From a virus, in the IMG/VR virus record IMGVR_UViG_3300013794_000014, positions 32,001 through 96,000 of that record: 64,000 nt of DNA. The stretch is one strand, 5' to 3'. The position numbers and the translations under genes are program-made. Positions 3,151 to 64,000 of this stretch are shown here, piece by piece (positions within the stretch are counted from its first letter, which is position 1; the number at the start of each line of letters is the position of its first letter). The notes beneath the pieces were generated by a model that saw only the letters and a program-made list of their open reading frames with translations, did no database searches and had not been told where the DNA came from.

Positions 3151-3292
3151 TTACTCACCTTTCTCATGTGTAACATTTAAATATAGGGAACATGTAAATT
3201 GTAATTTGTTAACCAAATAAACTACAACGTCTATAAATACTTTCATACGTAAATGTTATTTAACTGGCTAATGTATTTAAAGGAGTGGTCAC

Positions 3293-3430: not shown

Positions 3431-3458
3431 CATAATATAACACAGAGGTGTTTTACAT

Positions 3459-5204: not shown

Positions 5205-5214
5205 AGTGATAATT

Positions 5215-14340: not shown

Positions 14341-14344
14341 AATA

Positions 14345-16183: not shown

Positions 16184-16396
16184 ATGTATAGGGTGCTGAT
16201 TGTTGGTTCAGAACCAATCAGAGTCAGAATTGATACAGAAGAACAATATTTTGAAATACAGTATAGCGATGTATTTGGTCCTATTAGATTTACATATGAT
16301 GATCCCTATGACATTATAAAAGTAATTGAACAATATACTTCTTTGAGTCAAGAAGATATACAAAGAATACTTGGTGTCTGTTACTATGGATGGTAA
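16184..16396 (+). CDS. Small acidic hypothetical protein
   Basis: 70 aa; AGGTG SD; overlaps the hslU start. Confidence 0.7.
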   Translation: MYRVLIVGSEPIRVRIDTEEQYFEIQYSDVFGPIRFTYDDPYDIIKVIEQYTSLSQEDIQRILGVCYYGW

Positions 16397-28170: not shown

Positions 28171-28536
28171 ATGAAAATTGTAACTAAAAACCTTATTGAT
28201 GTAAATGGTTCTATTGCTACAGATGAAAACGGAAATGTTGTTATTGTAGTACCCCCAATGGATGAAAACGGCTTTCATATTGTAAGGGTTGATGTATCTG
28301 GACTTAAAGACGTTACTACTGCTTCTGCAATCGTTTACATCGAAGATAGAAGTGATGATATAGCAAGGATACAAGAAATTACAAGTCGTGCTCTAGAAAT
28401 CAAAGCTAGACTGACTGATACTGAAAATCCACCTTCAGAAACAGAAAAAGGTATACTTTATGCTGAATTAGCTGAATTGAATAAGCAACTCAAAATGATT
28501 GACTCGAATATGAACATATATGAACTAATTGGATAA
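28171..28536 (+). CDS. Putative fibre chaperone/assembly protein
   Basis: Follows a fibre gene; C-terminal coiled coil paralogous to 35864..36211. Confidence 0.5.
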   Translation: MKIVTKNLIDVNGSIATDENGNVVIVVPPMDENGFHIVRVDVSGLKDVTTASAIVYIEDRSDDIARIQEITSRALEIKARLTDTENPPSETEKGILYAELAELNKQLKMIDSNMNIYELIG

Positions 28537-30844: not shown

Positions 30845-30855
30845 AGGTGTCTACT

Positions 30856-32190
30856 ATGTCTATGAATAACTGGATCAAAATCATATTGCCTAATGGTGTT
30901 GAAAGGTATGTTAGAAAAATCGAATTTGGACATGGGTTTCAAGTCACTGAAGACAAATATGGTATTAACGTATCAAACATAAACTATGAAGGTGGTATTG
31001 ACTACGAATTTGCAAAAAACATTTTTGATATTACAAAATATGAATGGAAGTCTGTAGTACCTAACGACAAATGGAATAACGCTATAGTTTATGCTGTACA
31101 TAATAAGTCAAGTGAAGAAACCGTCACATTTGTTTTACATCTTAATACAATTTGGCCAATAACAAACGGATCAATGAAACCTGATCTTTCTGATGTACTT
31201 GTTATCAATGAAGACGGTGAAATTCTTTCTTGGTACTATAGTGGAGACAATGCTTTTGGTGAATTTGATATTGTAGTAACAGATAACATACCACAAAACG
31301 GAATCAAGAACTATTTCATTGTATTCGGGAATTCAAAATGTTTAGGTGTATTCAAGAAACCACAAAACGCCAGTATAGTCAAATTACCATTTAATTTAGA
31401 TAGTTACCGTAAATACAGTATTTATCCGTTATCAAATCAAGATATTAGGTTGAATTGGACTACTGATGGTAACAACGGTTACATAGACGTTTCATCACTT
31501 TCAGATGGTTCATTATTTGTCGTTGAACTTGACAACTTAAATGGAACTACAATGTCAGAGTTTGAATTTGATGTGACAAATGCCGTTGATGTTGAAAAGA
31601 TCCAATGGCTCAAACCAGAACCACAAATAACAGAAAACGTAAAAACTTACATAGTTAGGAATCAGTTTCTTTCAGATTGGCCGTACTATTGGTGTTTTGA
31701 CGTAACCAATGAAGATACACAAAATCCACTAGAAGGCCCTATCTGTATTGAATTTGACTCTACTGAATTGATATCAAAAGGTATAATGAAACCTAACGCA
31801 AATGACTTAAGGGTTGCTATTGTTGATCAATATGGAAATCCAATACGGTTCCTAGACTACTATGTAGAACACGTTACAATTGGAACAGATAAAACCAGAG
31901 TTTGGACTGAATTGTACATATCACCAAGTTCAACAATTAGATTGGCATTATTGTTTGATAACCCATATGTTTTCAGTGAATCTGATGGTAACAAAGTTAT
32001 GTTTAAGTTTTTCGATGAATTTATTGTCAAGTATTTACAACCAAATATATTTGTAGAAACCCTTGAAGATGGAACATATAGAGTAACAATTCATAATCCT
32101 TATGAAAAGCGAATATTTTACCCAATTAAGCTACCAATAAAAGCACCTAATGAATTAACTGGTTATGAAATTGTTCCAGAATCAGAGTAA
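30856..32190 (+). CDS. Tandem DUF2341-like tail protein
   Basis: Two MKPD/NxxDxxV...YY...FGN/FDN modules. Confidence 0.65.
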   Translation: MSMNNWIKIILPNGVERYVRKIEFGHGFQVTEDKYGINVSNINYEGGIDYEFAKNIFDITKYEWKSVVPNDKWNNAIVYAVHNKSSEETVTFVLHLNTIWPITNGSMKPDLSDVLVINEDGEILSWYYSGDNAFGEFDIVVTDNIPQNGIKNYFIVFGNSKCLGVFKKPQNASIVKLPFNLDSYRKYSIYPLSNQDIRLNWTTDGNNGYIDVSSLSDGSLFVVELDNLNGTTMSEFEFDVTNAVDVEKIQWLKPEPQITENVKTYIVRNQFLSDWPYYWCFDVTNEDTQNPLEGPICIEFDSTELISKGIMKPNANDLRVAIVDQYGNPIRFLDYYVEHVTIGTDKTRVWTELYISPSSTIRLALLFDNPYVFSESDGNKVMFKFFDEFIVKYLQPNIFVETLEDGTYRVTIHNPYEKRIFYPIKLPIKAPNELTGYEIVPESE

Positions 32191-32202
32191 AGGTGATATC
32201 AA

Positions 32203-34440
32203 ATGTCTTTGCCTTATTGGATTACTGGTACTGAAACTGAAAAATACATATGGACTAGGGTTACTATACCTGCAGGAAAACATGCAATACTGTATATCCG
32301 TAAAAAAGAAGGGTATAGTCCTATAGAACCTAAGAGAGTAATTAATGGCCTAGTTGGATGTTGGCATTTTGACGAAGGACAAGGTAATGTTGTTTATGAT
32401 AGTTCAGGTTATGGTAATAATGTTACATTATATGGTACATATGAATGGGTTACAGATAATGGAAATACTTGTATTTACTTTTCTAATGGATATGGTTTGA
32501 CACAAAATTCTATAACATTAGGAGATGATCCATTTACGTTTATAGTAAAAGTCAAGTACCCAAATGATGCAAGTATTAGTAGTAATACTGCTGTAATAAG
32601 TAATTATTCTGGATATTATACACATAAATATGCAGGTATTCATGTATATAGTGGATTGAAACTTCGGTTCTGTATTAGACATTATGATGATTCTAGTAGT
32701 AGGGCATATATTATGTCTGACATAATAAACAAAAACCAATGGTATTTTGTTGTTGGTAAAAGGGATACTACCAAGATATATCTATACTTAAATGGTGAAC
32801 TTGTTGGTACAAAATCATGTACACATGTTAGAGATGTAGATAATAACAGATCTATTGCAATAGGAGGTGGACATTATGGCAGAAATATTAAATGTTATGT
32901 AGGCTATGCAATGATCTTCAACAAAGCATTAACAGAAGAAGAAATACAAGATTTATACAATAATTATGGTATTGGAGATTGTGATGGTAAGTGTTATGTA
33001 TTTGATAAAACCTTTGTAAGTCGTATTGTAGACAATGTAATCCAAATTCAAAATATAAAACAGACCGATTCAAATACATGGAAAATAGTCTTGTATAATC
33101 CAACTAATGAAGATATAATAGATGGTACAATCAAAATTCCTGGAAATGACATTGTAACCAGTATTAATGAAAGTCTTGAAATTGTACAAAGAAGTGTTTT
33201 CGGTTACTGGATTGATTCAAATCTCAATATATGGGTATTACCATCTATCAAACCAGGACAATCTATCACATTTACAATAAAACCAAACAATGAATGTTTC
33301 CCTGAATCTTGGATATTTGACTATCTGAAAACATCAATAGATCCAAATAAATGGTTTGTTAACTGTAACTTCATACCAGATATTGATGGTATAACAATAA
33401 CAAAAGGTTATATCGAAGCAAATATAGATGTTACTGGACAAATAGTAGACTTAGTATTTGATCTGAATTGGCCATATAGACATGTACCAATACTGAAAAT
33501 CGGAAACAAAATCTTAGTCAAATACAATAATGGACAACTAGACTTCTACTTACATTATGATGTTGATCCTAATACACCTACATTTACGTATAAACTACTA
33601 GATTTGGAAAATACATTGTACATAAGGACACTAGATGGGAATAAACCCTTAAAACCAGGTATATTGAAACTTAGGTACAAAGGTAAATCAGGACATCCAT
33701 CAAATCATGAAGGATTTATCAACGACTATGATTACTCTACATTACACATAAAAGAAGTTGTCAATAGTATTTACCATCCAAGATCATGGGCATATGACTG
33801 CCAAAACGAACTTTACACTTGTATTCTAGATATATGGAATCAATGTAATGTAAACTTTGGTATTGATGGTGATGATGCTGTAGAATACGAAATCATCAAC
33901 CTACATAACCCAAATGAAAGGATAATAAAGGGTTGGTATGGTGGACATGGATTCAGAGGTAGTCCTCAAGCAATATCAAACGTTACCTTAAAACCCGGTA
34001 AATACCTAGTTATTGTAAGACAAGAAGAGGACTATGGTAGCGAAGGTGTAATCTTCTACTGGAAATACCAAAATGAACCTGAATGGCATGTTTTCAGTGT
34101 AGACAATGCTCCAGGATACGTCTATACATGGATTCCAACAGATGATAAAGCAAAAACCCGTGAATTCATTGAATATGCTAGAGTTGACTTAGAAAACCCA
34201 GAAATAGTAACAAGAATCCCAAGAACAGAATCAATTTGTAGACTCATATTTGACTTTACATCTGGACTAGACATTTATGTTAACGATGTACACGTATATT
34301 CACAACTAGAACCTTACAATGACTTAAACGGTATTGTTCTTGGACATCCAGACAACGGAACAACTTACACCAAATACTACAACATTAAAGTGTATCCAAA
34401 ACTACAATATAGTGTAAACCCAATACTTAGAAATTTTTAA
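32203..34440 (+). CDS. DUF2341 + LamG + PA14-like adhesin
   Basis: GLVGCWHFDEG...MIFNKALTEEEI LamG domain; FGIDGDDA PA14-like domain. Confidence 0.72.
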   Translation: MSLPYWITGTETEKYIWTRVTIPAGKHAILYIRKKEGYSPIEPKRVINGLVGCWHFDEGQGNVVYDSSGYGNNVTLYGTYEWVTDNGNTCIYFSNGYGLTQNSITLGDDPFTFIVKVKYPNDASISSNTAVISNYSGYYTHKYAGIHVYSGLKLRFCIRHYDDSSSRAYIMSDIINKNQWYFVVGKRDTTKIYLYLNGELVGTKSCTHVRDVDNNRSIAIGGGHYGRNIKCYVGYAMIFNKALTEEEIQDLYNNYGIGDCDGKCYVFDKTFVSRIVDNVIQIQNIKQTDSNTWKIVLYNPTNEDIIDGTIKIPGNDIVTSINESLEIVQRSVFGYWIDSNLNIWVLPSIKPGQSITFTIKPNNECFPESWIFDYLKTSIDPNKWFVNCNFIPDIDGITITKGYIEANIDVTGQIVDLVFDLNWPYRHVPILKIGNKILVKYNNGQLDFYLHYDVDPNTPTFTYKLLDLENTLYIRTLDGNKPLKPGILKLRYKGKSGHPSNHEGFINDYDYSTLHIKEVVNSIYHPRSWAYDCQNELYTCILDIWNQCNVNFGIDGDDAVEYEIINLHNPNERIIKGWYGGHGFRGSPQAISNVTLKPGKYLVIVRQEEDYGSEGVIFYWKYQNEPEWHVFSVDNAPGYVYTWIPTDDKAKTREFIEYARVDLENPEIVTRIPRTESICRLIFDFTSGLDIYVNDVHVYSQLEPYNDLNGIVLGHPDNGTTYTKYYNIKVYPKLQYSVNPILRNF

Positions 34441-34453
34441 GTAGTGATCTACT

Positions 34454-35833
34454 ATGAATCTACTTTCACTTTTAAGTTATTGGAAACGTAATGGTATATC
34501 AGATATACAGTTTAGTTCAGAACCTCCTAAAGATCCTACTGTATTATGGTTTGACACTAAAGAAAAAACGTTAAAATACTATGAACACGGAACTTGGAAA
34601 CCTATTAAACAAGAATTTATTGTGTATTCAGATACAGAACCAAAGGATACAACCGTTATTTGGTATAACACTACTAAACAATGTTTCTGTATATATTCTC
34701 CAAAAGATCATAAATGGAAAATGTTACAATTGCAATCTATGGGACATACAACTTTCGACAATAACATAAATGGAACTTGGAAATATTACATTTCTATTGA
34801 ACTAGATACAGTACCTAAAGAAGATATCCAATACAGGATTGAGTTTACAAGTAAATGTACTAATGTTTGGTCAAATGATTTGAAACGAATTCTTGTAACT
34901 GGACCAATTGGCAATTTTTGGCAACAAGTTCATGAATATGATTTAAGGGTTTTTGATGAATACAATCAACAAAATTACTTTTGGATTGAGAAATTTAGTA
35001 GAGAACAGAAACATGCTATTATTTGGGTAAAATTACATGTAGGTCAAAGACAAATAAATATCGCTTATGGAAATAAAGATTGTAATGAAAGCGTATATCA
35101 TGATGCACATAAAGTTTTCACAAGAACAATAGATGGATTAGTTGGATGTTGGTGTTTCAATGAAGGACAAGGGAATACTGTCTATGATTCATCTGGTTAC
35201 GATAATCGTGGTACAATACATGGTGCTACTTGGACTGATGATGGATACTATGGTAAAGCATTATACTTTGATGGAAACGATTATATACGAATACCTAATT
35301 CAAAGAGTTTACAAGTTGATAGAGATTTGACTGTTTTAGTACGTTTCTTTCCTAAAGATGTGAAAAGAGGTAGACAAGGTTTAGTTTTCAAACATTACAA
35401 TAACGAATATGAAGTCATAATGGAACCCACAGGTAATGTATCATTTTACCATGGAGATGGTTATTGGGAAGAAATACAGGAACCACCACATAGTGTCATA
35501 CAAAACCAATGGAATTTTGTAGCAATAACAAGAACTATAACTAACAGGACTATTAAATTCTATCTAAATGGACAGTATAAAGGATCTGACAAGTTTACAA
35601 AAATGCCAAGAAAAAGTAATTATGATGTGTATATTGGAACTCGTGCATATCGTTGGTACTATTTCTACGGTTTAATTGATGAAGTCATGATCTTCAATAA
35701 AGCGTTATCAGATACAGAAATCAATGACTTGTATCAGTATCATGGGATAGGTGGTTATGACGGTAAGTGTTACGTAAGAAAGGTCATTGACAAAAATCTC
35801 CGATTTAGGAAGATATCTATCAAAGAGTTCTGA
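34454..35833 (+). CDS. Tail fibre with LWFD repeats + DUF2341 + LamG
   Basis: N-terminus like 27280 (LSLLSY, PPKDPTVLWFD); GLVGCWCFNEG...IDEVMIFNKAL. Confidence 0.75.
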   Translation: MNLLSLLSYWKRNGISDIQFSSEPPKDPTVLWFDTKEKTLKYYEHGTWKPIKQEFIVYSDTEPKDTTVIWYNTTKQCFCIYSPKDHKWKMLQLQSMGHTTFDNNINGTWKYYISIELDTVPKEDIQYRIEFTSKCTNVWSNDLKRILVTGPIGNFWQQVHEYDLRVFDEYNQQNYFWIEKFSREQKHAIIWVKLHVGQRQINIAYGNKDCNESVYHDAHKVFTRTIDGLVGCWCFNEGQGNTVYDSSGYDNRGTIHGATWTDDGYYGKALYFDGNDYIRIPNSKSLQVDRDLTVLVRFFPKDVKRGRQGLVFKHYNNEYEVIMEPTGNVSFYHGDGYWEEIQEPPHSVIQNQWNFVAITRTITNRTIKFYLNGQYKGSDKFTKMPRKSNYDVYIGTRAYRWYYFYGLIDEVMIFNKALSDTEINDLYQYHGIGGYDGKCYVRKVIDKNLRFRKISIKEF

Positions 35834-41797: not shown

Positions 41798-42322
41798 ATG
41801 AGTCATCTTATCAATATGTTTACATGTGGGTCATATTTAGTTTCAAGAGATTGTATAAAAGTCATAGACGTGAAATTCACTGATTATGATATACAGTTAA
41901 TTTTAGATTTCATTTATCTGTTACCTATGCACGCCTATATTTTTGAGACTATATGGCTACTAGAGGCATTAACACAGTGGTTATTTGGGCTTCCGAAAAC
42001 AGAGAATGTAGTCAACACACCCAATCGAACACGTCACGACAATATGGTTGTCCTTTATGATGTTGCCAACGAATTCCCAAAATATAAGACACATAAGTAC
42101 AATATACATTTTTTAGTAGATTCTGATGATACATGTAGGAAATACTATGAACATGCTTTAAAAACAAGTTACACTGAATATAAGCGTCTTAAATCAAGTA
42201 CTACTAGACAAACATTAGACGTTTACTGTATAATCGCTAGAGAACCACAGTTTACAGTTTACTATCCTACTGAAAAAACAATACCAAGTAAATACAGAAT
42301 TGATTTTGGTGATACTAAATGA
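41798..42322 (+). CDS. Hypothetical protein
   Basis: 174 aa; translationally coupled to dcd. Confidence 0.6.
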   Translation: MSHLINMFTCGSYLVSRDCIKVIDVKFTDYDIQLILDFIYLLPMHAYIFETIWLLEALTQWLFGLPKTENVVNTPNRTRHDNMVVLYDVANEFPKYKTHKYNIHFLVDSDDTCRKYYEHALKTSYTEYKRLKSSTTRQTLDVYCIIAREPQFTVYYPTEKTIPSKYRIDFGDTK

Positions 42323-42987
42323 TTCTCGTTGATCATGAAATTAAAAAGGCAATTGAATCAGGTGAAATAGTCATTGATCCATTTGACGAAAACAACGTTG
42401 GTCCTACGTCTTATGATGTAACATTATCTCCACATTTTACCGTTTATACAAATCAGGTTTTTAATTTACAATCTGAGCCTGAATATGAATCATTGAAAAT
42501 AAAGGAAAATGAGTGTATTATTCTAATTCCGCCATTTTATGAAGCTCTTTACGATGATAGCCAAGAACTATTGTTTTTCAGAGTAAAAGGACAAATTGAT
42601 GTGCCACTAGATCCTGAACAGGTTAATTTGGCAAATATAGATGGTGACTATGCAATTTTTACATCAGTATTAGCAAGTACAAACGAATATATTAAATTAC
42701 CAGAACATATTAGTGCCGAATATACAGGTAGAAGCAGTTTAGGCCGTATCTATTTACAGTCACATCAAACTGCAGGCTGGATTGATGCTGGATTTGAAGG
42801 AACGATAACATTAGAGTTGATTGCTTTAGAATGTCCTGTTGTCTTATATCCATATACAAAAATTGGACAAATTATTTTCCATAGACATAATAAATGTAGT
42901 GTTCCGTACTGTAAACGTAAAACATCAAAGTATAATAAACAAGTAGGTGCAGTACCATCGCGAATATATTTAGATTTCAGAGACTAA
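42319..42987 (+). CDS. dcd: dCTP deaminase (Methanocaldococcus-like, possibly bifunctional dCTP deaminase/dUTPase)
   Basis: GPTSYDVTL, GRSSLGR, SHQTAGWIDAGFEGTITLE, IGQIIF, RKTSKY. Confidence 0.93.
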   Translation: MILVDHEIKKAIESGEIVIDPFDENNVGPTSYDVTLSPHFTVYTNQVFNLQSEPEYESLKIKENECIILIPPFYEALYDDSQELLFFRVKGQIDVPLDPEQVNLANIDGDYAIFTSVLASTNEYIKLPEHISAEYTGRSSLGRIYLQSHQTAGWIDAGFEGTITLELIALECPVVLYPYTKIGQIIFHRHNKCSVPYCKRKTSKYNKQVGAVPSRIYLDFRD

Positions 42988-43015: not shown

Positions 43016-43621
43016 ATGAGTATTACACGTATAAAAATGAAAAAATTAGATTGGTTAAAACATAAAGATGTAATTCAGGATATGGCAATTCTGGAAGTTG
43101 ATGGTTCAGTGAACAAAAATCCTGGACATTTTGGTATTGTTGGTGTATATAATCCTTCTGATCAAACAATAACAGCGTACAAATATAAAGGTAATCGACT
43201 AACTAACCAACTACTAGAAATGCTAGCAATATACCACGGATTAGAAACATTTCAGTTGTTACATGAACGTAATAATGAACATAATAATGAACATGAGTAC
43301 AGTGAACATGAATATAGGTATGAACGTAAATGTGCAATCGTTTCTGATAGTTTAACGACAATAAACATTTTAGTAGGAATTCAAAATGTACGTAACCCAC
43401 GTCTTGTACATTTAAAACAATTAATTGAACAAAAAATTGACAGTATGTCTATTGACAATATGTTTACCGACATTTACTTAGTATATAGACGTGGGCATAC
43501 TAGACACGATTACGTTGGCAAATATATTACAAACCTAGTTAAATATTACAATAGGACAAACAATGAGCCTGATATCGAGTATGGTTTACTACAGTCATTA
43601 ATAGAACAGTTACAGTGGTGA
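43016..43621 (+). CDS. rnhA: Ribonuclease HI-like protein
   Basis: EVDGS..NPG, TNQLLEMLAI, IVSDS catalytic D/E/D pattern. Confidence 0.75.
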   Translation: MSITRIKMKKLDWLKHKDVIQDMAILEVDGSVNKNPGHFGIVGVYNPSDQTITAYKYKGNRLTNQLLEMLAIYHGLETFQLLHERNNEHNNEHEYSEHEYRYERKCAIVSDSLTTINILVGIQNVRNPRLVHLKQLIEQKIDSMSIDNMFTDIYLVYRRGHTRHDYVGKYITNLVKYYNRTNNEPDIEYGLLQSLIEQLQW

Positions 43622-43626
43622 TATTA

Positions 43627-44130
43627 ATGTACCCATATGTATATGTAATTAGTAAGCCGGCATTTGAAGTATTGACAAAAAATGGACAAGACTTATCCGT
43701 ATTAGAAGCAAATAATTTTGATTATGAAATTGTACATAAAAACGATTTAACAGAAAAGTTATTTGGCCATGTAGTAGTAATACAATCACATATATTTGAA
43801 GTCTTTGAGGCAGAAGGAAAACTTACACTTGATGATATTATTGTTGCTGATCCAACCGTTAAAGAGATTCCTGGACATAAAGAGATTACATTAATGCTTA
43901 ACGAATCATTCAAGATCATTGATATACCATTTGAATATACATTAAAGGTGTTTATACCTGAAAATGTTGAATTAAAGCCAAAACGGTTCGAATATGTTTA
44001 CAATAATATACCGTTAGCGTTTAGTTATGCAGTTCTGTTATACAAAACGGCACAAACGTACTTTGAAGAGTCAGATACAAATGAAGTAGTGTTACTAAAA
44101 GTAAAAAGGGATACATATGGTCAAAGTTAG
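43627..44130 (+). CDS. Hypothetical protein coupled to the RNA polymerase genes
   Basis: GGTGA SD; overlaps the start of the DxDGD ORF. Confidence 0.6.
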   Translation: MYPYVYVISKPAFEVLTKNGQDLSVLEANNFDYEIVHKNDLTEKLFGHVVVIQSHIFEVFEAEGKLTLDDIIVADPTVKEIPGHKEITLMLNESFKIIDIPFEYTLKVFIPENVELKPKRFEYVYNNIPLAFSYAVLLYKTAQTYFEESDTNEVVLLKVKRDTYGQS

Positions 44131-45010
44131 ATTACAAATTCCAGGATTCTACGGAGTTTTAACACAACATTTTGATAATCCAGATATCGTTTACTTGCCT
44201 TCTTATACTTCTAACATCTTTTCAACAGGACAAACGGTTTTTGTAACACGCTATCCAGACGTTGACAAAAATGCCATATTACCATTAAAAGTCCAATTTC
44301 ATGAATATCCGGTTGTTAGTATTCACATCAGTAAGTTACCATACTTAGATGCTGATATCGATGGAGATTGTGTAGCGGTTTGGTTTGGTGACAATAATTG
44401 GGAAATTGACGACATTGAAGAAAAACCCTTTGAACCATTGAAATCACTGAATTTTAGTGATATTAAGAAACGTATCAAGAAAATTTCTGAATCTATGTTA
44501 ATGGATTTATTAAATCTTAAACTCGATTTTAATCAGTATATAGAAGACGTACAATTTCGGTTTCATGTCATTGACAAAGTCCCCATGTTAACTGGCACAT
44601 TGTTTAAGCGTTTTGCTCTACAACATTATGGTTTATTCTTCTACGATTTAAAAGATAACATTAGATTTGTACTAAATGCAGAATGGAAATATGAACCGTC
44701 AAATGCATTCTTTCAAACAACAAAAAACTATGATATTTGGATAAGAGCAATACAAATAATTTGTAATCGACTAAACAATATATGTCTTAAGTTCAAACAT
44801 CCAGTTAATTCCATTGATGATTTACGTAAGGTTTTGTCATTCTTGAAAGCATGTAATATTGATACAAAATGGTTTGAAAACGAATTTGGTGTTTCACATG
44901 ATCCCAGATATACGTCAATTGAGGAGTTTACTTTCTGGTTCACTAAAGACATTGAAAAAGACGCCTTCGAAGTCTTTAAAACAGGAATCAAAACGTCTAA
45001 CAATGGTTAG
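44117..45010 (+). CDS. Minimal RNA polymerase beta'-like catalytic DPBB subunit
   Basis: VFVTRYP...VVSIHISKLPYLDADIDGDCVAV aligns with beta'/Rpo1 LNRxP...LHP...YNADFDGDxMxV. Confidence 0.82.
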   Translation: MVKVRLQIPGFYGVLTQHFDNPDIVYLPSYTSNIFSTGQTVFVTRYPDVDKNAILPLKVQFHEYPVVSIHISKLPYLDADIDGDCVAVWFGDNNWEIDDIEEKPFEPLKSLNFSDIKKRIKKISESMLMDLLNLKLDFNQYIEDVQFRFHVIDKVPMLTGTLFKRFALQHYGLFFYDLKDNIRFVLNAEWKYEPSNAFFQTTKNYDIWIRAIQIICNRLNNICLKFKHPVNSIDDLRKVLSFLKACNIDTKWFENEFGVSHDPRYTSIEEFTFWFTKDIEKDAFEVFKTGIKTSNNG

Positions 45011-45767
45011 ACCCATTACACATATTGCCACTTCACCCTATAGACAGTTCATTGGACTTAAATGTGTAGAAGGATCTATAAGTCAAGACTATTCAATGTC
45101 AAAATATGTATTGGCAAAACCAGAATGGCCACATGTATGGTTTATCGGTGGTTTAAAAGTTAGAGGTGTCAATCTGATAACGGCTATTTGTGATCATCCA
45201 TATGTTCAAAATGATGCTTTTGTACTTACTAACCATAAGCCAATTGAAATCATTGATACATCTAATGAGACGTCATTCATGTTAGGTGTAGGAGACAAGA
45301 TTGGAAACCTACATGGACAAAAAGGTGTAATTAACAATGTCTTTGACAAAAACCGTTTTGAAATTATTCCGGAAACAATTGTCAGTGATATTTGGGAAAC
45401 AAAAGCAACTACATTTAAGTATGTCGACTGTCTAATGTCTTTGACATCTGTCATTGAAAGAGGTGCATTTGGACAATTTGTAGAGTGTTCATATTCATAC
45501 GGTAAACCAATTGACGTTGAGATTGACGTACCATTTCAACCACTACAAACGGGTTACATTTATGACAACGAACTAGATGAATACTATATGGCAATATTTG
45601 GTATCTGTCATTATGTTATCATTGATAAATTTGCCAAAGATATGCAAACAGGTAAAGTGTCAATTGACTATTTTGGACTATGTAACATATTGGCAAGAAA
45701 ACGCTATGATTTACTGAAACATTACTTGAACTTAGGTGACATTGATGTCGACGTTAACAAAAGATGA
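45003..45767 (+). CDS. Minimal RNA polymerase beta-like DPBB subunit
   Basis: GVNLITAI...QNDAFVL, LGVGDKIGNLHGQKGVI, DCLMSLTSVIERGAFGQFVE, IFGICHY match beta/Rpo2 conserved regions; ATG 45003 overlaps the upstream gene. Confidence 0.85.
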   Translation: MVRPITHIATSPYRQFIGLKCVEGSISQDYSMSKYVLAKPEWPHVWFIGGLKVRGVNLITAICDHPYVQNDAFVLTNHKPIEIIDTSNETSFMLGVGDKIGNLHGQKGVINNVFDKNRFEIIPETIVSDIWETKATTFKYVDCLMSLTSVIERGAFGQFVECSYSYGKPIDVEIDVPFQPLQTGYIYDNELDEYYMAIFGICHYVIIDKFAKDMQTGKVSIDYFGLCNILARKRYDLLKHYLNLGDIDVDVNKR

Positions 45768-46407
45768 AATAAGAATGTTAATAATGGAAGAACCTAAACT
45801 ACTTCTGAAAACTGGTAAGGTATTGAATACATGGCGTCTAATTATGGGACAAAGTATAATCCCTACATTTCATATCAAATACATGGAAGCAATAACAAAT
45901 AGCGGTGAATATGTAACGCTTTACGACTTTGAAGGATTAACAGGTTATGATGAAGATGGCACACCTTACGATATAACAGATATATCAAGAATTGTTGACA
46001 TTGATGTCCATATATACTTTGAACGTAGTTATCTGTCAAATTTATCCGCCATTGAAGATGTAGTCTATTATCCACCTGAAAGTCGTTATGTGACATTAGC
46101 GTACTTAATGGATATTGAAACTGAACCACTGTATATCAATTCTTTACCAATGTTTGATCATACAAAAATTAAGTATAATTTTCGTGGAAATTTAGTTATT
46201 GGTATTGACAATTATCCAAAAATATTGCAAAAAATCAATTATATGGGTTGTAATTTGAATCCAGACTATAATGGCATGGTTAGATTTGCTTACGAAGTTG
46301 AAGTACCTTATACAATGTTTTACAACAGAAAAGTCCATAATGAGTTAGTTGATATAATACCAGGAGTTCCATTGGTTCAACATACATTAACGGTTACTCT
46401 TGTATAA
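45745..46407 (+). CDS. Hypothetical protein, possible beta' N-terminal/clamp fragment
   Basis: LTKDEIR, VHIYFERS...AIEDVVYY, INSLPMF weakly echo beta' regions A/B. Confidence 0.4.
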   Translation: MSTLTKDEIRMLIMEEPKLLLKTGKVLNTWRLIMGQSIIPTFHIKYMEAITNSGEYVTLYDFEGLTGYDEDGTPYDITDISRIVDIDVHIYFERSYLSNLSAIEDVVYYPPESRYVTLAYLMDIETEPLYINSLPMFDHTKIKYNFRGNLVIGIDNYPKILQKINYMGCNLNPDYNGMVRFAYEVEVPYTMFYNRKVHNELVDIIPGVPLVQHTLTVTLV

Positions 46408-56858: not shown

Positions 56859-59800
56859 TTAAATCTGCCATATGTATGGTTGTACAGATGAAATCTGTGA
56901 AACTACGTTTGAAACAATTGAACTTACTGATGAAATAATATTCATCTGTTGAGTATTGAGCGCTGTCAAAGTAGTGGACGTGTGCATTGCCATCGTTTGT
57001 TTCAAATTATTCTCTAAACTTTGAAATCCCTGTGTAATTGAATTGGTTAATGCATTGAGACTACTTTCAAGTTTTGTTGCCAACGTATTTATCGAATCTG
57101 ATATTAACTGTCCTACAGCCTTAATAGCCTGTATCTGTTTATTCATTTGTCGTATAATAGATATCGTTGAATTTTGTATTTTCGTTACAATTGCACCCGC
57201 TGTTGAAGTGATTTCGTTTTTGATTTCAACCAATTTCTGTCCTAAGGTTGTTGTATTTTGACTTATAGCATTAGTTATCTGTACTGTATTTTCACTTAGT
57301 TTTGTAATTACTGATTCGGATTTTTGCCTTAATACATTGTATATTTGTGATAACAACTGAGTGGTTGGCTGTTTCTTCTGCTCATATTTCTGTTTATCTT
57401 GTTGTTGAGTTTGTTGTACATTATCTTGTGTTGTAGTTTGTGACTTGTCCTTATTCTGTAATTCTGTTTTAATTACATTTATGTCTACTACCATTTTCTT
57501 ATATTCCTCTAAGTAGTTAGTTTCTATTTCCTCTAGTTTTGTAATTAGTTTATCTTCAGTTTCAGATTGTTGTACTAATCCAGATAACAAGTTTGCAAGA
57601 AGCTCAATTAATACACCACCACCACCAAAAATCGGTTGTGATATAATTGATGATGATTCTTCTTCAGTTTCTGTCACATTCGTTGGTATACTTTGTTCCG
57701 ATGTACTTTGTTCTATTGCCTGTATATCCTTATAATACCGATAAGTGTCCCAACCAAGTAATGCTGCATCAATTGCAACTGAAGCTGCAGTACCAACAAC
57801 CGGTACATTAGCAACAATTCCAGAGGCTAGTTCACCAAGTGCACCTATCCAATCTCCTTCTTGCCATCTCTGATATGCAAAAATACCACTCGTTACTGTA
57901 CTAACAATTGGTATTTTCTTGAGTATACTCTTACCAGCAGCTTTTGCCGCTTGTTTTGCAGCCTGTTTTGTTGTAACGTGTGAATAAATACTTGTTCCAA
58001 GTGAAATTATATCTGATATTATATTGCCCTGGTGATATTCGTGTAGTTCCTGTACATCTTGCGGTGTTACAGCTACAGTTTCGTCTGTTGGAGATGATGG
58101 TTGTGACGTTGGATCAAATTCTAATCCTAATGATGGTGCCACAGGAATAAGTACTGGTGCTACTATCTTACCATAACGTGTCTTAAGTAATGTTCTAAAC
58201 CACCTGTTATCTGTAAGTGATCCTGCTGCTTTTGTAATAGATTCTGGTACCTGAATTTTAGGAAGTCGTATGTCTTCAAGGAAACTTTTCACCTTCCCTA
58301 TAATTCCTTTACCTTTACCTTTCTTCTTACCGCCACCTTTACCCTTACCTTTTCCTTCATCGTCATCATCCTCATCGCCCCAACCAAAGATTTTACCTAA
58401 TGCCCACTCAGCTGTTGGTTCAAGGGCCGCATAAAGCCCGTAGAGTATTCCAGATTGCCAATCACCCGATGCAAACGAATACAACGATGTAGCTGCTGCT
58501 CCAAGAGCTGATAATTTAGCACTTGTTGAAAAGAACTTTTTAAGTGCTTTTTTAATACTACCTGTTTTCTTATATTCGGTATATGCAGCTTTACCACCAC
58601 CAATTGTAGAAACAATACCAGTAGCCTGAGCTACCCTATTTATATTCTGTGAAGTTTCCATTTTACGTTTATTTTCTTTTATACGATTAACTATTTCTTC
58701 TGTGTTATCTACATTCCATTCATCTTGCCAATGTTCCACGTATGATTCAAATGTTTGTGTATCAACCACTCTAATGTTACCACTTTCATCAGCATATACA
58801 ATTATGTTCTCTTTCTTGTAAGCTGGTTCTCCCCATGGTGTTACAATTTTTTCTGCACCTGCTGTTACATTAGCTAAAAACGTATATGGATCAGCACCAA
58901 TTTGTTCAGCATATGTGTAAATGTCCATCCCTAAATCGCTTGGTAACAAGTAATCGTATTTAACCTTAGGTGTTTCAGCAAATGGTGATACAGCTGTACC
59001 TGCTATTGCACCAACAATTGCATTGACTATTGCAGACTTAATACCCTTTCCGATACCATATTGGAACCCTATTGCTGCAGCATTAATTGTCGGCCCTAAA
59101 TTAATACCTGTATCTTCATAAACTTCCTTAATCCACTGGTCAAGTGAATGTTGAATCTTATCGCCAAACAACGAGTTGAGTATTAGTTGTATTAGATTAC
59201 CTTGCGGTGTGTAACCCAATGTTGATTCTACAGCATGTCCATATAAACCTAAGCGTGTATATTCGTTAAACCTGACAAAGTCACTTAAACTTAAAGTAGC
59301 CTGTCCATATTTGAATAGATATCTAAATGGTGCTGAATCGGCAATTTTTCCTAATTGTGGTATATACTTACTTAGATCGTTTAATACTGTTCCAAAGGCC
59401 GTTGGAACCGTTACCATGTAGTCTAATGTATTTAAGGATTGTTCCCAACCAAACTTTGGCATGTTATATCCGAATATTGGTTGCTCAGGAAGTGGCCTCC
59501 AACCAATTGTATGTCCTAATATCTCGTTGATAGTAACCATCCATGCAGTTCCTCTATACATATGTGGAGCATACTTACGTAATATCGGGAATTTCTCATA
59601 AAATGACTCTTCTAACATGTTTTCGTATGCAACTATTCTTACAAATGTTCTACCGGGATAAAATGGTTTATTCATAGATGCATCAACTTGTTTCCGATAT
59701 CGTTCTATGAGTTCATTGTTATCAGTAGTGAGCGGTAAACCAAATCTTTCAACTCCAACTGTATCTGAGGTACCAAACATTGTACGCATTTCATATTCAA

Positions 59801-62800
59801 TAGGTAAATACCAATGTTTACTAAATACAGAGGTATCAACAGGTGTTTCTCGTGCAATTTTGTTGTATTTCTCTAATGTTGATTCAATATCATGTACAAT
59901 TTGTGTTTTCACCTGTACATCTGGGCCTTCTACTTTAATCTGTTTAACAATTTCTTGTAACTTCTGTAGTTCGATAACGGCATCATGAATACTCATTTTA
60001 CCTTCTTCAACTGCAATTTTAATTTCATCTAACGCTAAAACAACCTTATCTAAGTCATTTAGGTTCGTTGTCGTTGTTCTATCTGTTCCTAATTCTGATT
60101 CAGGTACAAATCTGTTTTCTATGGATGTACCATCTATGAACCTACTTTCAGTACCAATTTCAGGAATACCAAATGCGTGATACTTGAAAACATCAATTAT
60201 TGTACGTATTTTAGTAAATATAGATGTCTTAGCTGGTTCATTGTCAACTAACGTGGATTTAATACCTTGATCTGGCCTTTCTTCAATAGTACTAATGTCT
60301 ACACTTTGAAGTTCAGGCCCACCCTGTGTCGTTGATTTTTCTGGTGTAGTTACTTCTGGGAAATACTTTCTAACGATACTGTCGTTTGTTGGCACTGTCT
60401 GTGGTCCCCAGAAGCTAAGTAAGTCAACAATAGATGTAAGTAACAGTAAGTTTGGTAGGTATTGTAAAACGGATGACGTAATTGCTGATACATTGTCTAC
60501 AAGATTAATGAAATGTTGTTTTGTATCAACTTGCAGATCAACTGTCACTACTGATGCTGATTCTGATTCTTGTGTTAACATATTTTGTGGTTGTGGTTGT
60601 ATTGGTGTTGATGTCGACGTATTTTGCATCTGCTGTAACTGTGATTGTAACTGTGGTATGAGATTTGTCAATAATCCAACGAAGGCAGAAATACCAATGA
60701 TTGCACCAGTAAATGCAACTGCATGTATAGGTGAAATTACACCTCTTTTTGATCTAATATAATCTTCAAATGCATCTCTATGAATACTCTTATAGTATTC
60801 ATGTACAAATGACGGTTTTTGATGTATATACCGTTTTTCTAATTGTTGTAAATAGTTAAACATATGTGCTAAATTCTCATCATTATGTTGTTTTCTAAAT
60901 GTACGCTTTGTAATCCTATCGTAGTAACTAGTAGGGAATGCTTTATGATTAGAGTGTGTTGGTATCTCAGGTAATGTACGTACTCTTCTCCTCTTTTTAC
61001 TCGTTTTATTTAACTCTATATTTCCGTTTTTAATATGGACTGTCGTTCCAGTAAGGTTACTTAATGCTATGATTGCGCTCTGAACTGCTTTTGTAAACCT
61101 TTGCAAACTAATACGTGAACGTGATGTCGTCTTAGTATGCAACGTAACGGCCCATACTGCCTGCATAATACCCGTTACTAATGATCCTAACGTGATTCCT
61201 AGTGCTGTGAGCAAATTCATTATACTGAATATCCCTTCGAACATTTGTAATCCTGCTCCAAATGCTGCACCTCTTGCAGTATCTATTACCATACTAGTAG
61301 CTGATTCAACTGCTTCTTTACCTAAAGGAGTTTGTAGTACTTGTTCTCCTAATTTTGTTAAATGCTGTGTACGTTCGTCTTCTGTAATTTCAAATGAAGC
61401 TTGTAATGCGTTTATCATCATCTCTGTTTGTTTAACAATTTCATTGATACGGTATGTATATGATGTACCCATTATATGTGCAACCGTAACAGAATCTGGT
61501 AATTCTTGCAAGTTCTTTACCAATAATGTCGGTTCCTCTTTTTCTTTGATCATTGCCTGTATTGTCTTACTTAACGCTCCAAAGTCAATTTTCAGTCCAA
61601 GTACCTTAGTAACAGATAGCAGTAAACTATAAATTGCTGATAATATATCTGCAATTAATCCTAACTTTCCAATAATTCTATCAGCCGCTGATGCAACTAA
61701 TGGTGATTCATATCCATATTTGATATCAACTAACGTTCTTAAGTAAGCTGATGCAGTAGACCACGCTAAATATCCTGCCCATTTTTGTTTTGCCGTCTCG
61801 TCTTCACCTGGAGCTGCTGCTACAATTTTATTGAATGCTGTTTGTGCTGTCTGTAACGTTTGTTGTGTAGGTTGTGGTACTGACGTTAGGCGTCCCACTA
61901 GCGTTTGTTCTTGCTTTCCAGTTAGTACATCGACAAATTCACTTGGACTTTGATAATACGTCGCAACCTCCATTAATGCTGCAAATTCCTTCAATGAAAG
62001 ACTTGATACAGCTTTTAAGTAACTCATACCTCCTACTGGATGTAATACGTGGTAACTTGGCATTGAAGCTAATCGTACACCAATTGCTCTAGCATATGCA
62101 TAAGCGTTTGTTGGTACTTCACCGAAAATCTGATCAAGTTTCTTTTCTACTGCTTGTTCTGTTCTTCCACCCATATCACGAACACTTTGAATTGACCACA
62201 TTGACCACATCATACCTAAAGCAGACATTAGAGAGCCTACCAATGTATGAGCAAGCATTTGAACGCCACTATGTATATGTTTCAAAAACTCCGTTGCGAA
62301 CGTTGCAGTAGCATATATGTCGGCCCATTTCTCAGAAACGCCTGCATCAAGTAATTGTTGCCTTGTTTGTTTTTTAATAACCTGTAATTTATGAACAACA
62401 TCTGCACCAGGACGCTGTGCCAGCTGAGATCCAATTTGTGCACGTGCTTCCTGTACAAGTTCATTTACACGCTCAGACATCACTTCTGCTTGTTTATTTA
62501 TCTGTTCACTCGTTTTACTAAACTGTTTTTGTGCTTCTTGTAAACGTCTAGTTAATTCTGGTATCTCATCCTTCATATTACTAATAGTCTTATTCAATGC
62601 ATTAAAGTCTGCTATAATCTCACTTAAAGCATCACCTACTGAGGTTATTCTTGGTTCATTGAAGAATGGTAAATTTTGTTTAAGCGTTTCTGCAATCTCT
62701 TCTTTTGGTATTCCTAAATGCTTATGTAGTAGGTCAATGACGTCATAAATCGCCATACCTTCTGATATTTTTTCAACGTCAAATGGTACACCTACGTCTT

Positions 62801-64000
62801 CTGAAATTTTACTTACAACTTTACGTACTCGATCTACTTGTTGCCCTGTAATAACCCAGTTTCGTGATTCATAGACAAGTGCTTTTCGATAAATCTCATC
62901 AGCAACAGATCGTCCAAATGCTTTTTGTAACGCCTCTTTAATCGTTAAGTTTTTTCTTGTGCCATACCGTTCTTGTAGCTCCGAAATTATATCTTGCGCA
63001 TATGAACCTGCTGTCTTTAACTTAAGTCTTGTCTTAATAACGTCTTGAATTTCTGCTTTTTGCATATGTTCACGTATTACGTTGTAAAATGCAGGACCCA
63101 ACGCTTCATGTAAGAATAATGCACGAGTTAAAACCCTTTCTTGCTGTGACAATCTTGGTACTGCTAAATTTTTAGTGCCAGGAATCTCTTTCAAATCTTC
63201 TGGGTATAACATTGCAAACAAAGATAATAGTGAGTTACCGGTATTTTGTTGTTGTAGATATTCTAAATAACGTGGTATATTTGTCTGTCGTATTGTGTCT
63301 TGAAGCATTCCTAAGACTAAGTTGGTTGAAACGTGTCTCATACGTTGATTTAACCCTTCTATAATTGCTGCATGGAATGGTGCTAATTCTGGCCCAAACT
63401 GAATAAACGCATCAAGTGTTCTTGATTTCATAATTAAGTTCATTCTGTATAATTGGTTCAATAAATCCATTGTTGTCTGTACTTGCTGTAACTGTTCAAT
63501 TGCTGCTTTAGTAAAGTCAAATGAACTTAAGGCACCAGTTGTAATAGTAATAGTACGATGTTGCATCAACGGCACTGTTAATTCAACACCTTGTAATGCA
63601 TGTGCTAAATGTACACTTTTATTTGCCAAATTACCTAAATCTTTTGCAACATCATGTATACTTCTACTTGAACGGCTTGCAATTTCACCTAGTCCTTGAA
63701 TTACATCAGATAGAACAACTATATTGTCTGCAGCAATTCCAACTGCAAGTCTCAATGATTCCCTGACATTTTCGTTTGTAATGAACTCGAACGCTTTTCG
63801 TATATCTTTATCTTTTATATGCGGTATTAACTGTTCGAGGTGTGTAATATTCTTTACGTCTTCAATACCAAATTGTCTAGCTAAATGTGAAATTAAAATA
63901 CCTTCTGCAATAGTTTTCTGATTTGCAGGTAAGTTTTCGAGTACTCCAATTATAGCGGCATAAGTTGTTAAGTTTTCAAGGAAACCACCTTTACCTTCTT
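56859..64000 (-). CDS. Giant tape-measure-like / internal virion protein (5' partial, >2,370 aa)
   Basis: The frame stays open beyond 63755 to the window end. Long helical A/Q/G-rich protein with hydrophobic segments and a GKSILKKIPIV...GDWIGALGELASG motif seen in tape-measure-type proteins. Confidence 0.7.
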   Translation of the reverse strand, partial: EGKGGFLENLTTYAAIIGVLENLPANQKTIAEGILISHLARQFGIEDVKNITHLEQLIPHIKDKDIRKAFEFITNENVRESLRLAVGIAADNIVVLSDVIQGLGEIASRSSRSIHDVAKDLGNLANKSVHLAHALQGVELTVPLMQHRTITITTGALSSFDFTKAAIEQLQQVQTTMDLLNQLYRMNLIMKSRTLDAFIQFGPELAPFHAAIIEGLNQRMRHVSTNLVLGMLQDTIRQTNIPRYLEYLQQQNTGNSLLSLFAMLYPEDLKEIPGTKNLAVPRLSQQERVLTRALFLHEALGPAFYNVIREHMQKAEIQDVIKTRLKLKTAGSYAQDIISELQERYGTRKNLTIKEALQKAFGRSVADEIYRKALVYESRNWVITGQQVDRVRKVVSKISEDVGVPFDVEKISEGMAIYDVIDLLHKHLGIPKEEIAETLKQNLPFFNEPRITSVGDALSEIIADFNALNKTISNMKDEIPELTRRLQEAQKQFSKTSEQINKQAEVMSERVNELVQEARAQIGSQLAQRPGADVVHKLQVIKKQTRQQLLDAGVSEKWADIYATATFATEFLKHIHSGVQMLAHTLVGSLMSALGMMWSMWSIQSVRDMGGRTEQAVEKKLDQIFGEVPTNAYAYARAIGVRLASMPSYHVLHPVGGMSYLKAVSSLSLKEFAALMEVATYYQSPSEFVDVLTGKQEQTLVGRLTSVPQPTQQTLQTAQTAFNKIVAAAPGEDETAKQKWAGYLAWSTASAYLRTLVDIKYGYESPLVASAADRIIGKLGLIADILSAIYSLLLSVTKVLGLKIDFGALSKTIQAMIKEKEEPTLLVKNLQELPDSVTVAHIMGTSYTYRINEIVKQTEMMINALQASFEITEDERTQHLTKLGEQVLQTPLGKEAVESATSMVIDTARGAAFGAGLQMFEGIFSIMNLLTALGITLGSLVTGIMQAVWAVTLHTKTTSRSRISLQRFTKAVQSAIIALSNLTGTTVHIKNGNIELNKTSKKRRRVRTLPEIPTHSNHKAFPTSYYDRITKRTFRKQHNDENLAHMFNYLQQLEKRYIHQKPSFVHEYYKSIHRDAFEDYIRSKRGVISPIHAVAFTGAIIGISAFVGLLTNLIPQLQSQLQQMQNTSTSTPIQPQPQNMLTQESESASVVTVDLQVDTKQHFINLVDNVSAITSSVLQYLPNLLLLTSIVDLLSFWGPQTVPTNDSIVRKYFPEVTTPEKSTTQGGPELQSVDISTIEERPDQGIKSTLVDNEPAKTSIFTKIRTIIDVFKYHAFGIPEIGTESRFIDGTSIENRFVPESELGTDRTTTTNLNDLDKVVLALDEIKIAVEEGKMSIHDAVIELQKLQEIVKQIKVEGPDVQVKTQIVHDIESTLEKYNKIARETPVDTSVFSKHWYLPIEYEMRTMFGTSDTVGVERFGLPLTTDNNELIERYRKQVDASMNKPFYPGRTFVRIVAYENMLEESFYEKFPILRKYAPHMYRGTAWMVTINEILGHTIGWRPLPEQPIFGYNMPKFGWEQSLNTLDYMVTVPTAFGTVLNDLSKYIPQLGKIADSAPFRYLFKYGQATLSLSDFVRFNEYTRLGLYGHAVESTLGYTPQGNLIQLILNSLFGDKIQHSLDQWIKEVYEDTGINLGPTINAAAIGFQYGIGKGIKSAIVNAIVGAIAGTAVSPFAETPKVKYDYLLPSDLGMDIYTYAEQIGADPYTFLANVTAGAEKIVTPWGEPAYKKENIIVYADESGNIRVVDTQTFESYVEHWQDEWNVDNTEEIVNRIKENKRKMETSQNINRVAQATGIVSTIGGGKAAYTEYKKTGSIKKALKKFFSTSAKLSALGAAATSLYSFASGDWQSGILYGLYAALEPTAEWALGKIFGWGDEDDDDEGKGKGKGGGKKKGKGKGIIGKVKSFLEDIRLPKIQVPESITKAAGSLTDNRWFRTLLKTRYGKIVAPVLIPVAPSLGLEFDPTSQPSSPTDETVAVTPQDVQELHEYHQGNIISDIISLGTSIYSHVTTKQAAKQAAKAAGKSILKKIPIVSTVTSGIFAYQRWQEGDWIGALGELASGIVANVPVVGTAASVAIDAALLGWDTYRYYKDIQAIEQSTSEQSIPTNVTETEEESSSIISQPIFGGGGVLIELLANLLSGLVQQSETEDKLITKLEEIETNYLEEYKKMVVDINVIKTELQNKDKSQTTTQDNVQQTQQQDKQKYEQKKQPTTQLLSQIYNVLRQKSESVITKLSENTVQITNAISQNTTTLGQKLVEIKNEITSTAGAIVTKIQNSTISIIRQMNKQIQAIKAVGQLISDSINTLATKLESSLNALTNSITQGFQSLENNLKQTMAMHTSTTLTALNTQQMNIISSVSSIVSNVVSQISSVQPYIWQI

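Follow-up and report, generated by a model that had tools for sequence, protein, structure and literature searches.

We analysed a 64,000-nucleotide (nt) stretch of viral DNA (hereafter the window), which covers bases 32001–96000 of the 141,059-bp record IMGVR_UViG_3300013794_000014 from IMG/VR; coordinates are those of the window unless the genome is named. On the plus strand of the window, two overlapping open reading frames (ORFs), ORF1 (44117..45010, 297 amino acids (aa)) and ORF2 (45003..45767, 254 aa), carry the β′-like and β-like halves, respectively, of a two-barrel RNA polymerase (RNAP) active site, as the original prediction had described; the coordinates, lengths and motifs that it quoted were all found in place. 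The β′-like identity of ORF1 is indicated by Pfam, a family profile and a structural model, and the β-like identity of ORF2 by Pfam, PHROGs and a family profile.

Eight residues are invariant in all two-barrel RNAPs, namely R446, P448 and D479/481/483 of Rpb1 and D837, K979 and K987 of Rpb2 (PMC2919709), and equivalents of all eight were present in the pair as R45, P47, D80, D82 and D84 of ORF1 and D71, K99 and K107 of ORF2. In ORF1, the R45-Y46-P47 triplet of the T-R45-Y-P47 motif (44249..44257, plus strand) corresponds to R446-x-P448 of Rpb1, and D78-A-D80-I-D82-G-D84 (44348..44368, plus strand) is the equivalent of the NADFDGD Mg-binding loop. The spacing of 35 residues between R45 and D80 is identical to that between R425 and D460 of E. 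coli β′ and between R446 and D481 of yeast Rpb1 (numbering of PMC2919709). ORF2 contains G55-x-N57...A61...N70-D71-A72 (45165..45236, plus strand), predicted to form the first strands of barrel B and including D71 as the counterpart of Rpb2 D837 and E. coli β D814, followed by G97-D-K99-I-G-N-L-H104-G-Q-K107-G108 (45291..45326, plus strand), which holds the two lysines that bind nucleoside triphosphates (NTPs) or nucleic acid in a K-x7-K arrangement.

Relatives of the pair were few. Exhaustive phmmer comparison of ORF1 with 1.84 billion representatives returned two clusters only, and word-based searches recovered six to eight close variants (68–98% identity), all of them metagenomic. One distant relative, with 30% identity for the β′-like and 40% for the β-like protein, is encoded by a 207-kb contig (JACDUH010000003.1, assembly GCA_013761045.1) deposited as Methanococcus maripaludis. 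Its β-like protein bears the automatic UniProt name ‘DNA-directed RNA polymerase’, and the NCBI name of its β′-like protein, ‘DsrC/TusE family’, looks like a misannotation. A pattern scan of IMG/VR with the β-like alignment found one locus, which represents the same element as the NCBI contig, because the proteins encoded on either side of the pair (X and Y, described below) are identical in the two and the β′/β identities to the window match. Pattern scans with the same alignment found nothing in genome or metagenome contig collections, and tblastn of ORF1 and ORF2 against 50,697 GenBank phage records gave no match. The catalytic Asp and Lys residues were invariant in every homologue, including the one at 30–40% identity: D80, D82, G83 and D84 of ORF1 in 8 sequences and D71, K99 and K107 of ORF2 in 9. 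Y46 and P47 of the first motif, G55 and A61 of ORF2 and the entire lysine motif were also invariant, and the lone exception among the eight catalytic residues was position 45, where one close homologue has K in place of R.

Profile comparisons pointed to the same enzyme class. Searched against PDB sequences, the ORF1 family profile aligned aa 35–88 with residues 404–457 of the Pol V largest subunit (E 3e-5), and the ORF2 family profile aligned aa 90–132 with residues 820–862 of Thermus β, which contain GDK..HGNKG (E 0.0034); RNAP second-largest subunits made up 35 of the 37 chains listed for the latter. ORF2 also matched PHROG 3295, ‘RNA polymerase beta subunit’ (E 1e-5), and its neighbours in a protein atlas were viral Rpb2_6 clusters (scores 0.88–0.90), which we treat as a lead only. 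The five β motifs originally proposed for ORF2 fared unevenly in an ungapped shuffle test against E. coli β: GDK..HGQKG scored a z of 7.3 (against β 1059–1078) and the collinear PE.P....GL a z of 3.6, whereas the remainder, plausible by eye, were individually non-significant. Local alignment with cheap gaps to E. coli β and β′ gave scores no better than those of shuffled sequences, and the method was dropped.

Structure prediction located a double-psi β-barrel, barrel A, at aa 6–100 of ORF1 (44132..44416, plus strand). The AlphaFold2 model of ORF1 was confident solely in this N-terminal barrel, with a predicted local distance difference test score (pLDDT) of 71–88 over aa 11–90, and a Foldseek search with the model placed the largest subunits of Pol IV/V, African swine fever virus and bacteria at the top, and the p97 N domain and other double-psi barrels lower. 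The predicted fold of ORF1 is thus the double-psi barrel expected of it, closest to that of RNAP largest subunits. Co-folding of ORF1 with ORF2 gave an interaction prediction score from aligned errors (ipSAE) of 0.92 in 3 of 3 runs, compared with 0.00 for the best of 3 controls; of solved complexes, 58 of 80 attained this mark, and of mismatched pairs, 2 of 110. The runs agreed in at least 93% of their contacts, with a pLDDT of at least 92 for the ORF2 partner and 88–89 for the other chain, and with these clean controls an interface between the two ORFs is confidently predicted. In the co-folded pair, residues 79–83 of ORF1, which belong to the Mg loop, contacted residues 69–72, 96–99 and 107–111 of ORF2. 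Since the loop contacts the Asp region and both Lys regions, the catalytic groups are predicted to face one cleft, in which the DxDxD loop meets the β-like Asp and lysines.

Outside the active site the two proteins are strikingly short of familiar elements, and neither the C-terminal two-thirds of ORF1 nor the ORF2 flanks showed a match to anything. The distance from D71 to K99 is 28 residues here, compared with 57 in the distant relative, 164 in a giant protein encoded by the same genome (see below) and 251 in E. coli β, and the flap/wall insert inside barrel B is therefore nearly all gone, which bears out the description of the pair as a near-bare core with its inserts removed. The N-terminus of ORF1 lies just 44 residues ahead of R45, and the invariant G10-x-Y12-G13-V14-L15 within this segment might, by eye, correspond to the last part of switch 2, which, like the funnel motifs, has been tied to DNA-templated transcription (PMC2919709). 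Downstream of barrel A, a long helix at aa 145–170 (44549..44626, plus strand), of low pLDDT in the single-chain model, is a candidate bridge helix. Contacts to ORF2 recur every 3–4 residues along it (145–146, 148–149, 163–164, 167–168 and 171), and D153, P156, L158, G160, F163 and K164 are invariant in this region; the structural search with the ORF1 model gave no significant match of the helix to the bridge helix. Further downstream, the invariant columns L224..K227-H228-P229..N231 (44786..44809, plus strand) form a candidate trigger-loop His motif, which we take, by eye, to resemble the M-R-T-F-H motif of β′.

The pair belongs to a cassette of four genes, X-ORF1-ORF2-Y, all of which overlap, by 14, 8 and 23 nt. 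The 8-nt overlap of ORF1 with ORF2 reads ATGGTTAG; the ORF2 frame is open from a TTG at 44859, and 4 of 6 homologues begin at the equivalent of ATG 45003. Y (45745..46407, plus strand, 220 aa) probably starts at ATG 45745, which stands behind an AGGTGA Shine–Dalgarno sequence and 23 nt before the end of ORF2. Its alignment with the syntenic gene of the distant relative (32% identity, E 4e-19; 56 invariant columns) revealed a depth of conservation equal to that of the catalytic subunits. X (43615..44130, plus strand, 171 aa), which overlaps the start of ORF1 by 14 nt, is 49% identical to its counterpart in the vent-metagenome relative, contig L017, and merely 14% identical to that of the distant relative, so that its position is kept and its sequence is not, and its candidacy as an accessory subunit is weak. 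Searches of Pfam, PHROGs, PDB and the Atlas matched neither X nor Y, and Y showed no similarity to the giant tape-measure protein. Ratios of nonsynonymous to synonymous substitution rates (dN/dS) against L017 were 0.14 for ORF1, 0.08 for ORF2, 0.17 for Y and 0.34 for X; the value for ORF2 was near that for NrdD (0.075), and all are rough estimates, with dS saturated. Judged by its conservation and translational coupling, Y is probably a third subunit or a specificity factor. The original prediction had described a two-gene system; the pair is real, and the conserved third gene Y as well as two further two-barrel polymerases in the genome had been overlooked.

Upstream of the cassette lie a dCTP deaminase-like (DCD) gene (42319..42987, plus strand), whose syntenic genes in both relatives carry PF22769 DCD, and an RNase H-like gene (43016..43621, plus strand; Pfam RNase_H E 3e-4, PHROG 531). 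Both neighbours are conserved, and the order DCD, RNase H, X, β′, β, Y is identical in the window, in L017 and in the M. maripaludis-labelled contig, where RNase H is fused to DCD. The polymerase pair is thus placed after DCD and RNase H and before genes for an ERCC4 nuclease, NrdD/NrdG, an AAA ATPase and a family-B DNA polymerase.

The largest of the additional two-barrel polymerases is part of a giant protein of 6956 aa encoded on the minus strand (genome 88859–109729). Its C-terminal 2380 aa, the tape-measure part, lie within the window (56859..64000, minus strand), and its N-terminal polymerase domain lies past the window end (genome 105–109.7 kb). Pfam Rpb1_2 matched aa 229–399 with 33.6 bits, above the gathering cut-off, with NLDYDGD at aa 390, and β-like motifs were found at about aa 1650–1930 (FNIEDA, a K-x7-K within PKWTLPAGQKG, and PIDVIYSN). 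The C-terminal part matched PHROG 167, tape measure, and has a peptidase signature near the C-terminus. A crAss-like phage was considered owing to this giant minus-strand ORF and dropped, the C-terminal tape-measure signature being of the type found in Thermus phage P23-45. If tail length scales with the tape measure as in P23-45, the tail would be extraordinarily long. The third set, a medium-sized pair outside the window, consists of a 459-aa protein (genome 131636–133015, plus strand; GRHP...GDFDGD) and a 376-aa protein (genome 133012–134142; GSKIQNIFLQK), neither of which was detected by Pfam. Counterparts in the M. maripaludis-labelled element measure 5750 aa for the giant protein and 500 and 362 aa for the medium pair.

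The β′-like barrel comes first in all three sets, the reverse of the order in cellular operons and in known single-chain two-barrel enzymes; the latter place the β-like barrel first (an order unconfirmed for gp64 and gp96 of P23-45). Profile–profile comparison of the mini set with the medium and giant sets aligned the right motifs of the β′-like barrels, and of ORF2 with the medium β, at E 0.026–0.049 and a probability below 2%. When ORF2 was compared with the N-terminal 1500 aa of the giant protein, nothing was recovered (E 0.68), the β-like block of that protein at about aa 1650–1930 lying beyond the query. The weak motif alignments suggest common descent of the three polymerase sets. The pair had originally been offered as a model of the ancestral two-barrel core; we judge reduction to be likelier than an ancestral relic, because two larger relatives of the same gene order share the genome, although what links the three sets is weak.

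The record terminates in a 92-bp direct repeat, and the virus, in whose genome genes for a large terminase and a minor tail protein can be recognised, is head-tailed. Four DNA sequencing runs, all from one hydrothermal-vent metagenome sample, contain the window DNA, and no RNA sequencing run is listed as containing it; the vent sample may be where the DNA originated. The genome encodes a family-B DNA polymerase, a glutamine amidotransferase–QueC fusion, an HslU-like ATPase and a RecJ-like protein, together with an ERCC4 nuclease, NrdD, an ATP-dependent ligase and AAA ATPases; ERCC4 and ATP-dependent ligase genes are common in archaea. The G+C content is 32–34% over most of the window, a value typical of Methanococcales. 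An archaeal host is likely, and from one labelled assembly, the habitat and the G+C content the host is most likely a member of Methanococcales. A scan of species genomes with NrdD for the host gave no match, and a search with the large terminase returned metagenome proteins only. The term ‘archaeal virus’ in the original prediction gains support, of an indirect kind, from the relative in an M. maripaludis isolate assembly, the vent source and the base composition.

IMG/VR trims the 207-kb contig of this relative to a 175-kb ‘provirus’, the boundary of which is doubtful. The 10 kb beyond that boundary are still virus-like (ERCC4, AAA, radical SAM and many unknowns), and the contig as a whole may therefore represent a jumbo virus that is episomal and not integrated.

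Several further features of the virus were recorded. The glutamine amidotransferase–QueC fusion (14264–15730, plus strand; QueC E 1e-40) suggests a 7-deazaguanine DNA modification pathway, and the HslU/ClpX-like AAA+ ATPase (16371–17684, plus strand) matched AAA_2 (E 4e-21) and PHROG 4339 (E 1e-68). A role as fibre or receptor-binding proteins is probable for five large proteins with DUF2341 and/or Laminin_G_3 (concanavalin-like) domains; their genes, at 5206–7143 and 29609–35833, are on the plus strand and separate from the tail block of the minus strand. The sole tRNA gene of the genome, for tRNA-Arg (anticodon GCG; genome ~28358–28435), lies outside the window. In an analysis of 9-mer enrichment across 44 intergenic gaps, AAAGGTGAT ribosome-binding words were enriched, and a ATATTTAAATA-like word, AT-rich and near-palindromic, (C)AATATTTAAATA, occurred in 4–5 gaps against about 0.4 expected (for example, at 590–884 and 3151–3458). 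The latter could be an archaeal TATA-like box or a promoter of a viral polymerase.

Taken together, the sequence and model evidence makes it probable, in our judgement, that ORF1 and ORF2 are the catalytic subunits of a drastically reduced two-barrel RNAP that would act as a non-virion transcriptase in a virus-run cascade. ORF1 would contribute barrel A, home to the R-x-P motif and the magnesium-binding DxDxD loop, and its helical region after the barrel would probably hold a bridge helix and a trigger-loop-like element. ORF2 would contribute barrel B, with the Asp for the second metal and both lysines, its flap/wall insert almost wholly deleted, and the two chains are predicted to pack barrel to barrel into one active site. 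The subunits would be produced from the overlapping, translationally coupled X-ORF1-ORF2-Y cassette, with Y as a probable third subunit or specificity factor. The pair would polymerise NTPs on DNA. By analogy with P23-45, in which a tape-measure-fused RNAP of the virion and a non-virion RNAP were shown experimentally to run early transcription (PMC10770324), the giant tape-measure-fused protein is a probable virion polymerase that would open the cascade, the 459- and 376-aa pair would also take part, and the enzyme formed by ORF1 and ORF2 would be produced once the cell is infected and transcribe viral genes of a later class. A non-virion role is read from the fact that the pair is unfused to virion proteins and lies within a block of nucleotide-metabolism and replication genes. 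No match to α/Rpo3-11-like (RNA_pol_L) or ω/Rpo6-like (RNA_pol_Rpb6) subunits was obtained in the complete genome, with 14 of 14 control genomes matched, and no gene resembling transcription factor B was found in the genome; three polymerases in the absence of such genes make a largely host-independent cascade plausible. We tentatively advance as possible the broader claim that ORF1 and ORF2, as a heterodimer and perhaps joined by Y, constitute a self-sufficient DNA-dependent RNAP and the smallest two-barrel transcriptase known, one of three that would enable host-free transcription in a tailed virus of Methanococcales, which would then be the first archaeal virus so shown.

A number of observations weigh against this interpretation. 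Pfam RNA_pol_Rpb1_2 on ORF1 (aa 36–91) and RNA_pol_Rpb2_6 on ORF2 (aa 93–127) fell on the right motifs with 15.8 and 16.1 bits, below the gathering cut-offs of 25.3 and 23.4, respectively. The single-chain AlphaFold2 model of ORF2 had a mean pLDDT of 33.7, and the predicted barrel B fold of ORF2 thus draws on its motifs and the co-fold only. The co-fold itself was supplied with two of our own family alignments, shallow at 8 rows each, and its pass may partly reflect memory, because β/β′ complexes have been solved in abundance. Comparison with E. coli gave no significant sequence match of ORF1 to the bridge helix or trigger loop. The 9-mer analysis of the 44 intergenic gaps provided no promoter word assignable to any polymerase. 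The suggested role in a cascade is an analogy only, the host is suggested on a basis other than CRISPR spacers or infection, and the position of the pair beside RNase H in the replication block fits priming equally well.

Priming is the substance of the principal alternative, in which the pair would be an active two-barrel RNAP devoted to replication priming or origin activation, making RNA primers or R-loops for the family-B polymerase that RNase H would then remove. Its appeal is that the complete 141-kb genome yielded no primase domain (DNA_primase_S, Prim-Pol or Toprim_2) in searches that matched control genomes, that the pair is linked to DCD and RNase H in the distant relative as well, with replication genes downstream, and that the two other polymerases could cover transcription. 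However, genes of non-virion phage RNAPs normally reside among early and middle replication genes, which makes the position non-discriminating; Pfam could miss a primase that has diverged, and a number of large ORFs in the block are without assignment; and the virus could use the host primase. We know of no two-barrel RNAP that serves as a dedicated replicative primase, and on balance consider this explanation unlikely.

Two further explanations keep the two-barrel fold and change what it does. The pair may work only with host RNAP subunits or initiation factors, or with parts of the other viral polymerases, a dependence for which the size of 551 aa, devoid of a recognisable clamp, lobe, protrusion, flap or jaw, and the lack of an encoded α- or ω-type assembly subunit could be taken as signs. 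This we regard as improbable: jumbo-phage RNAPs, YonO and P23-45 gp64/gp96 all function without α or ω homologues (PMC7598289, PMC5467207, PMC10770324), both catalytic halves are present here and co-fold alone with high confidence, and the surfaces that bind small subunits in cellular β/β′ are, from the size of the chains, largely deleted. A different chemistry or template has also to be weighed, since the two-barrel superfamily contains RNA-dependent RNA polymerases such as QDE-1 and a DNA polymerase, PolD DP2 (PMC9508822, PMC7708050), and the choice of template and substrate is unreadable from sequence because the C-terminal two-thirds of ORF1 and the ORF2 flanks match nothing; an inactive, decaying paralogue would belong here as well. 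The best structural and profile matches were nevertheless to large subunits of DNA-dependent RNAPs and not to QDE-1 or DP2, and GDK..HGQKG, like the NADFDGD-type motif, follows the cellular RNAP pattern. Retention of the eight invariant residues and dN/dS of 0.08–0.14 argue against decay, and the genome already has a family-B DNA polymerase; we consider this last group of explanations very improbable. A reduced, virus-encoded non-virion transcriptase thus remains our preferred reading of the pair.

With cellular RNAPs the pair has in common the eight invariant residues, the R-to-D spacing of 35 and a division into two polypeptides. E. coli β has HGNKG where ORF2 has HGQKG, a version that is also found in archaeal and eukaryotic second-largest subunits. 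Gene order is opposite in the cellular enzymes, the insert in barrel B counts some 250 residues there against 28 here, and cellular large subunits exceed 1000 aa each; unlike them, the pair has no recognisable clamp, lobes, jaw or dock, and no α/ω platform is encoded. Jumbo phages of the phiKZ and AR9/PBS2 type likewise have separate β and β′ genes, function without α or ω, and encode virion and non-virion enzymes within one genome, but their RNAPs have four or five subunits and keep most β/β′ domains (PMC7598289), the PBS2-type enzyme consisting of four polypeptides of 48–80 kDa (PMC2919709), whereas the core described here is made of 297 and 254 aa. YonO of the Bacillus SPβ prophage, QDE-1 and gp66 of phi14:2, a crAss-like phage, are also strongly reduced and keep little beyond active-site residues; each of them is one chain, of about 100 kDa or more, in contrast to the two chains found here, which are closer to the cellular type. 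YonO, a single chain of ~100 kDa, establishes that a minimal two-barrel enzyme can be active as a DNA-dependent RNAP (PMC5467207).

The arrangement in P23-45 is the best functional model and a precedent for the polymerase set of this virus. There too, an RNAP, gp96, is N-terminal on a giant tape measure (5002 aa in P23-45, 6956 aa here), and a small two-barrel RNAP of the non-virion kind is encoded separately (PMC10770324). The P23-45 genome has two polymerase sets and the present one three; gp64 and gp96 are single chains, whereas the sets other than the giant protein are split here into two genes with the β′-like one first; and the host of P23-45 is a bacterium, whereas that of the present virus is probably archaeal. 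The two P23-45 enzymes are held to stem from one duplication, and the β′-then-β order in three sets hints at a common origin here as well. ORF1 could not usefully be matched to gp96 in sequence or fold (Foldseek rank 50, root-mean-square deviation 25.6 Å), and its NADFDGD-like motif, together with the HGQKG of ORF2, is of the cellular type, a sign pointing towards the other of the two clades recognized in PMC10770324. The shortest active fragment of gp96 spans residues 327–1124 (PMC10770324); ORF1 and ORF2 together amount to 551 aa, an estimated ~64 kDa, and among the published enzymes compared the pair is the smallest two-barrel RNAP found.

A two-barrel RNAP is in itself of a known kind. What is new is the size, the smallest that we found, the split with reversed order, the conserved unknown partner and a set of three polymerases in a probable archaeal virus; in a literature coverage that was incomplete, we found no published description of the family of the pair, of the M. 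maripaludis element or of a β′-first split two-barrel enzyme. The original prediction had held that archaeal viruses depend on host RNAP. Papers up to 2021 agree that, among known archaeal viruses, none has an RNAP of its own (10.1101/2021.07.29.453957; PMC5569661), a statement softened by the nearest exception found, magrovirus ‘group D’ elements, which carry an RNAP A gene and whose nature is uncertain (PMC5434244).

An active-site region of ~500 residues is common to cellular RNAPs, in which two subunits carry most of it (PMC2919709); if the pair is active, essentially no more than this region would be needed, divided between chains of 297 and 254 aa. An active pair would also provide a tractable minimal system in which to study two-barrel catalysis, the holding of DNA without a clamp, and the need for flap, lobes and jaw. 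Methanococcus maripaludis is genetically tractable, and the presence of a relative within a sequenced isolate of this species makes the question testable at the bench. Finally, one genome holds three β′-first polymerases, one giant and fused, one medium-sized and split, one mini and split; should the three sets descend from one another, they would amount to a natural sequence of steps by which a universal enzyme lost domains and underwent fission.

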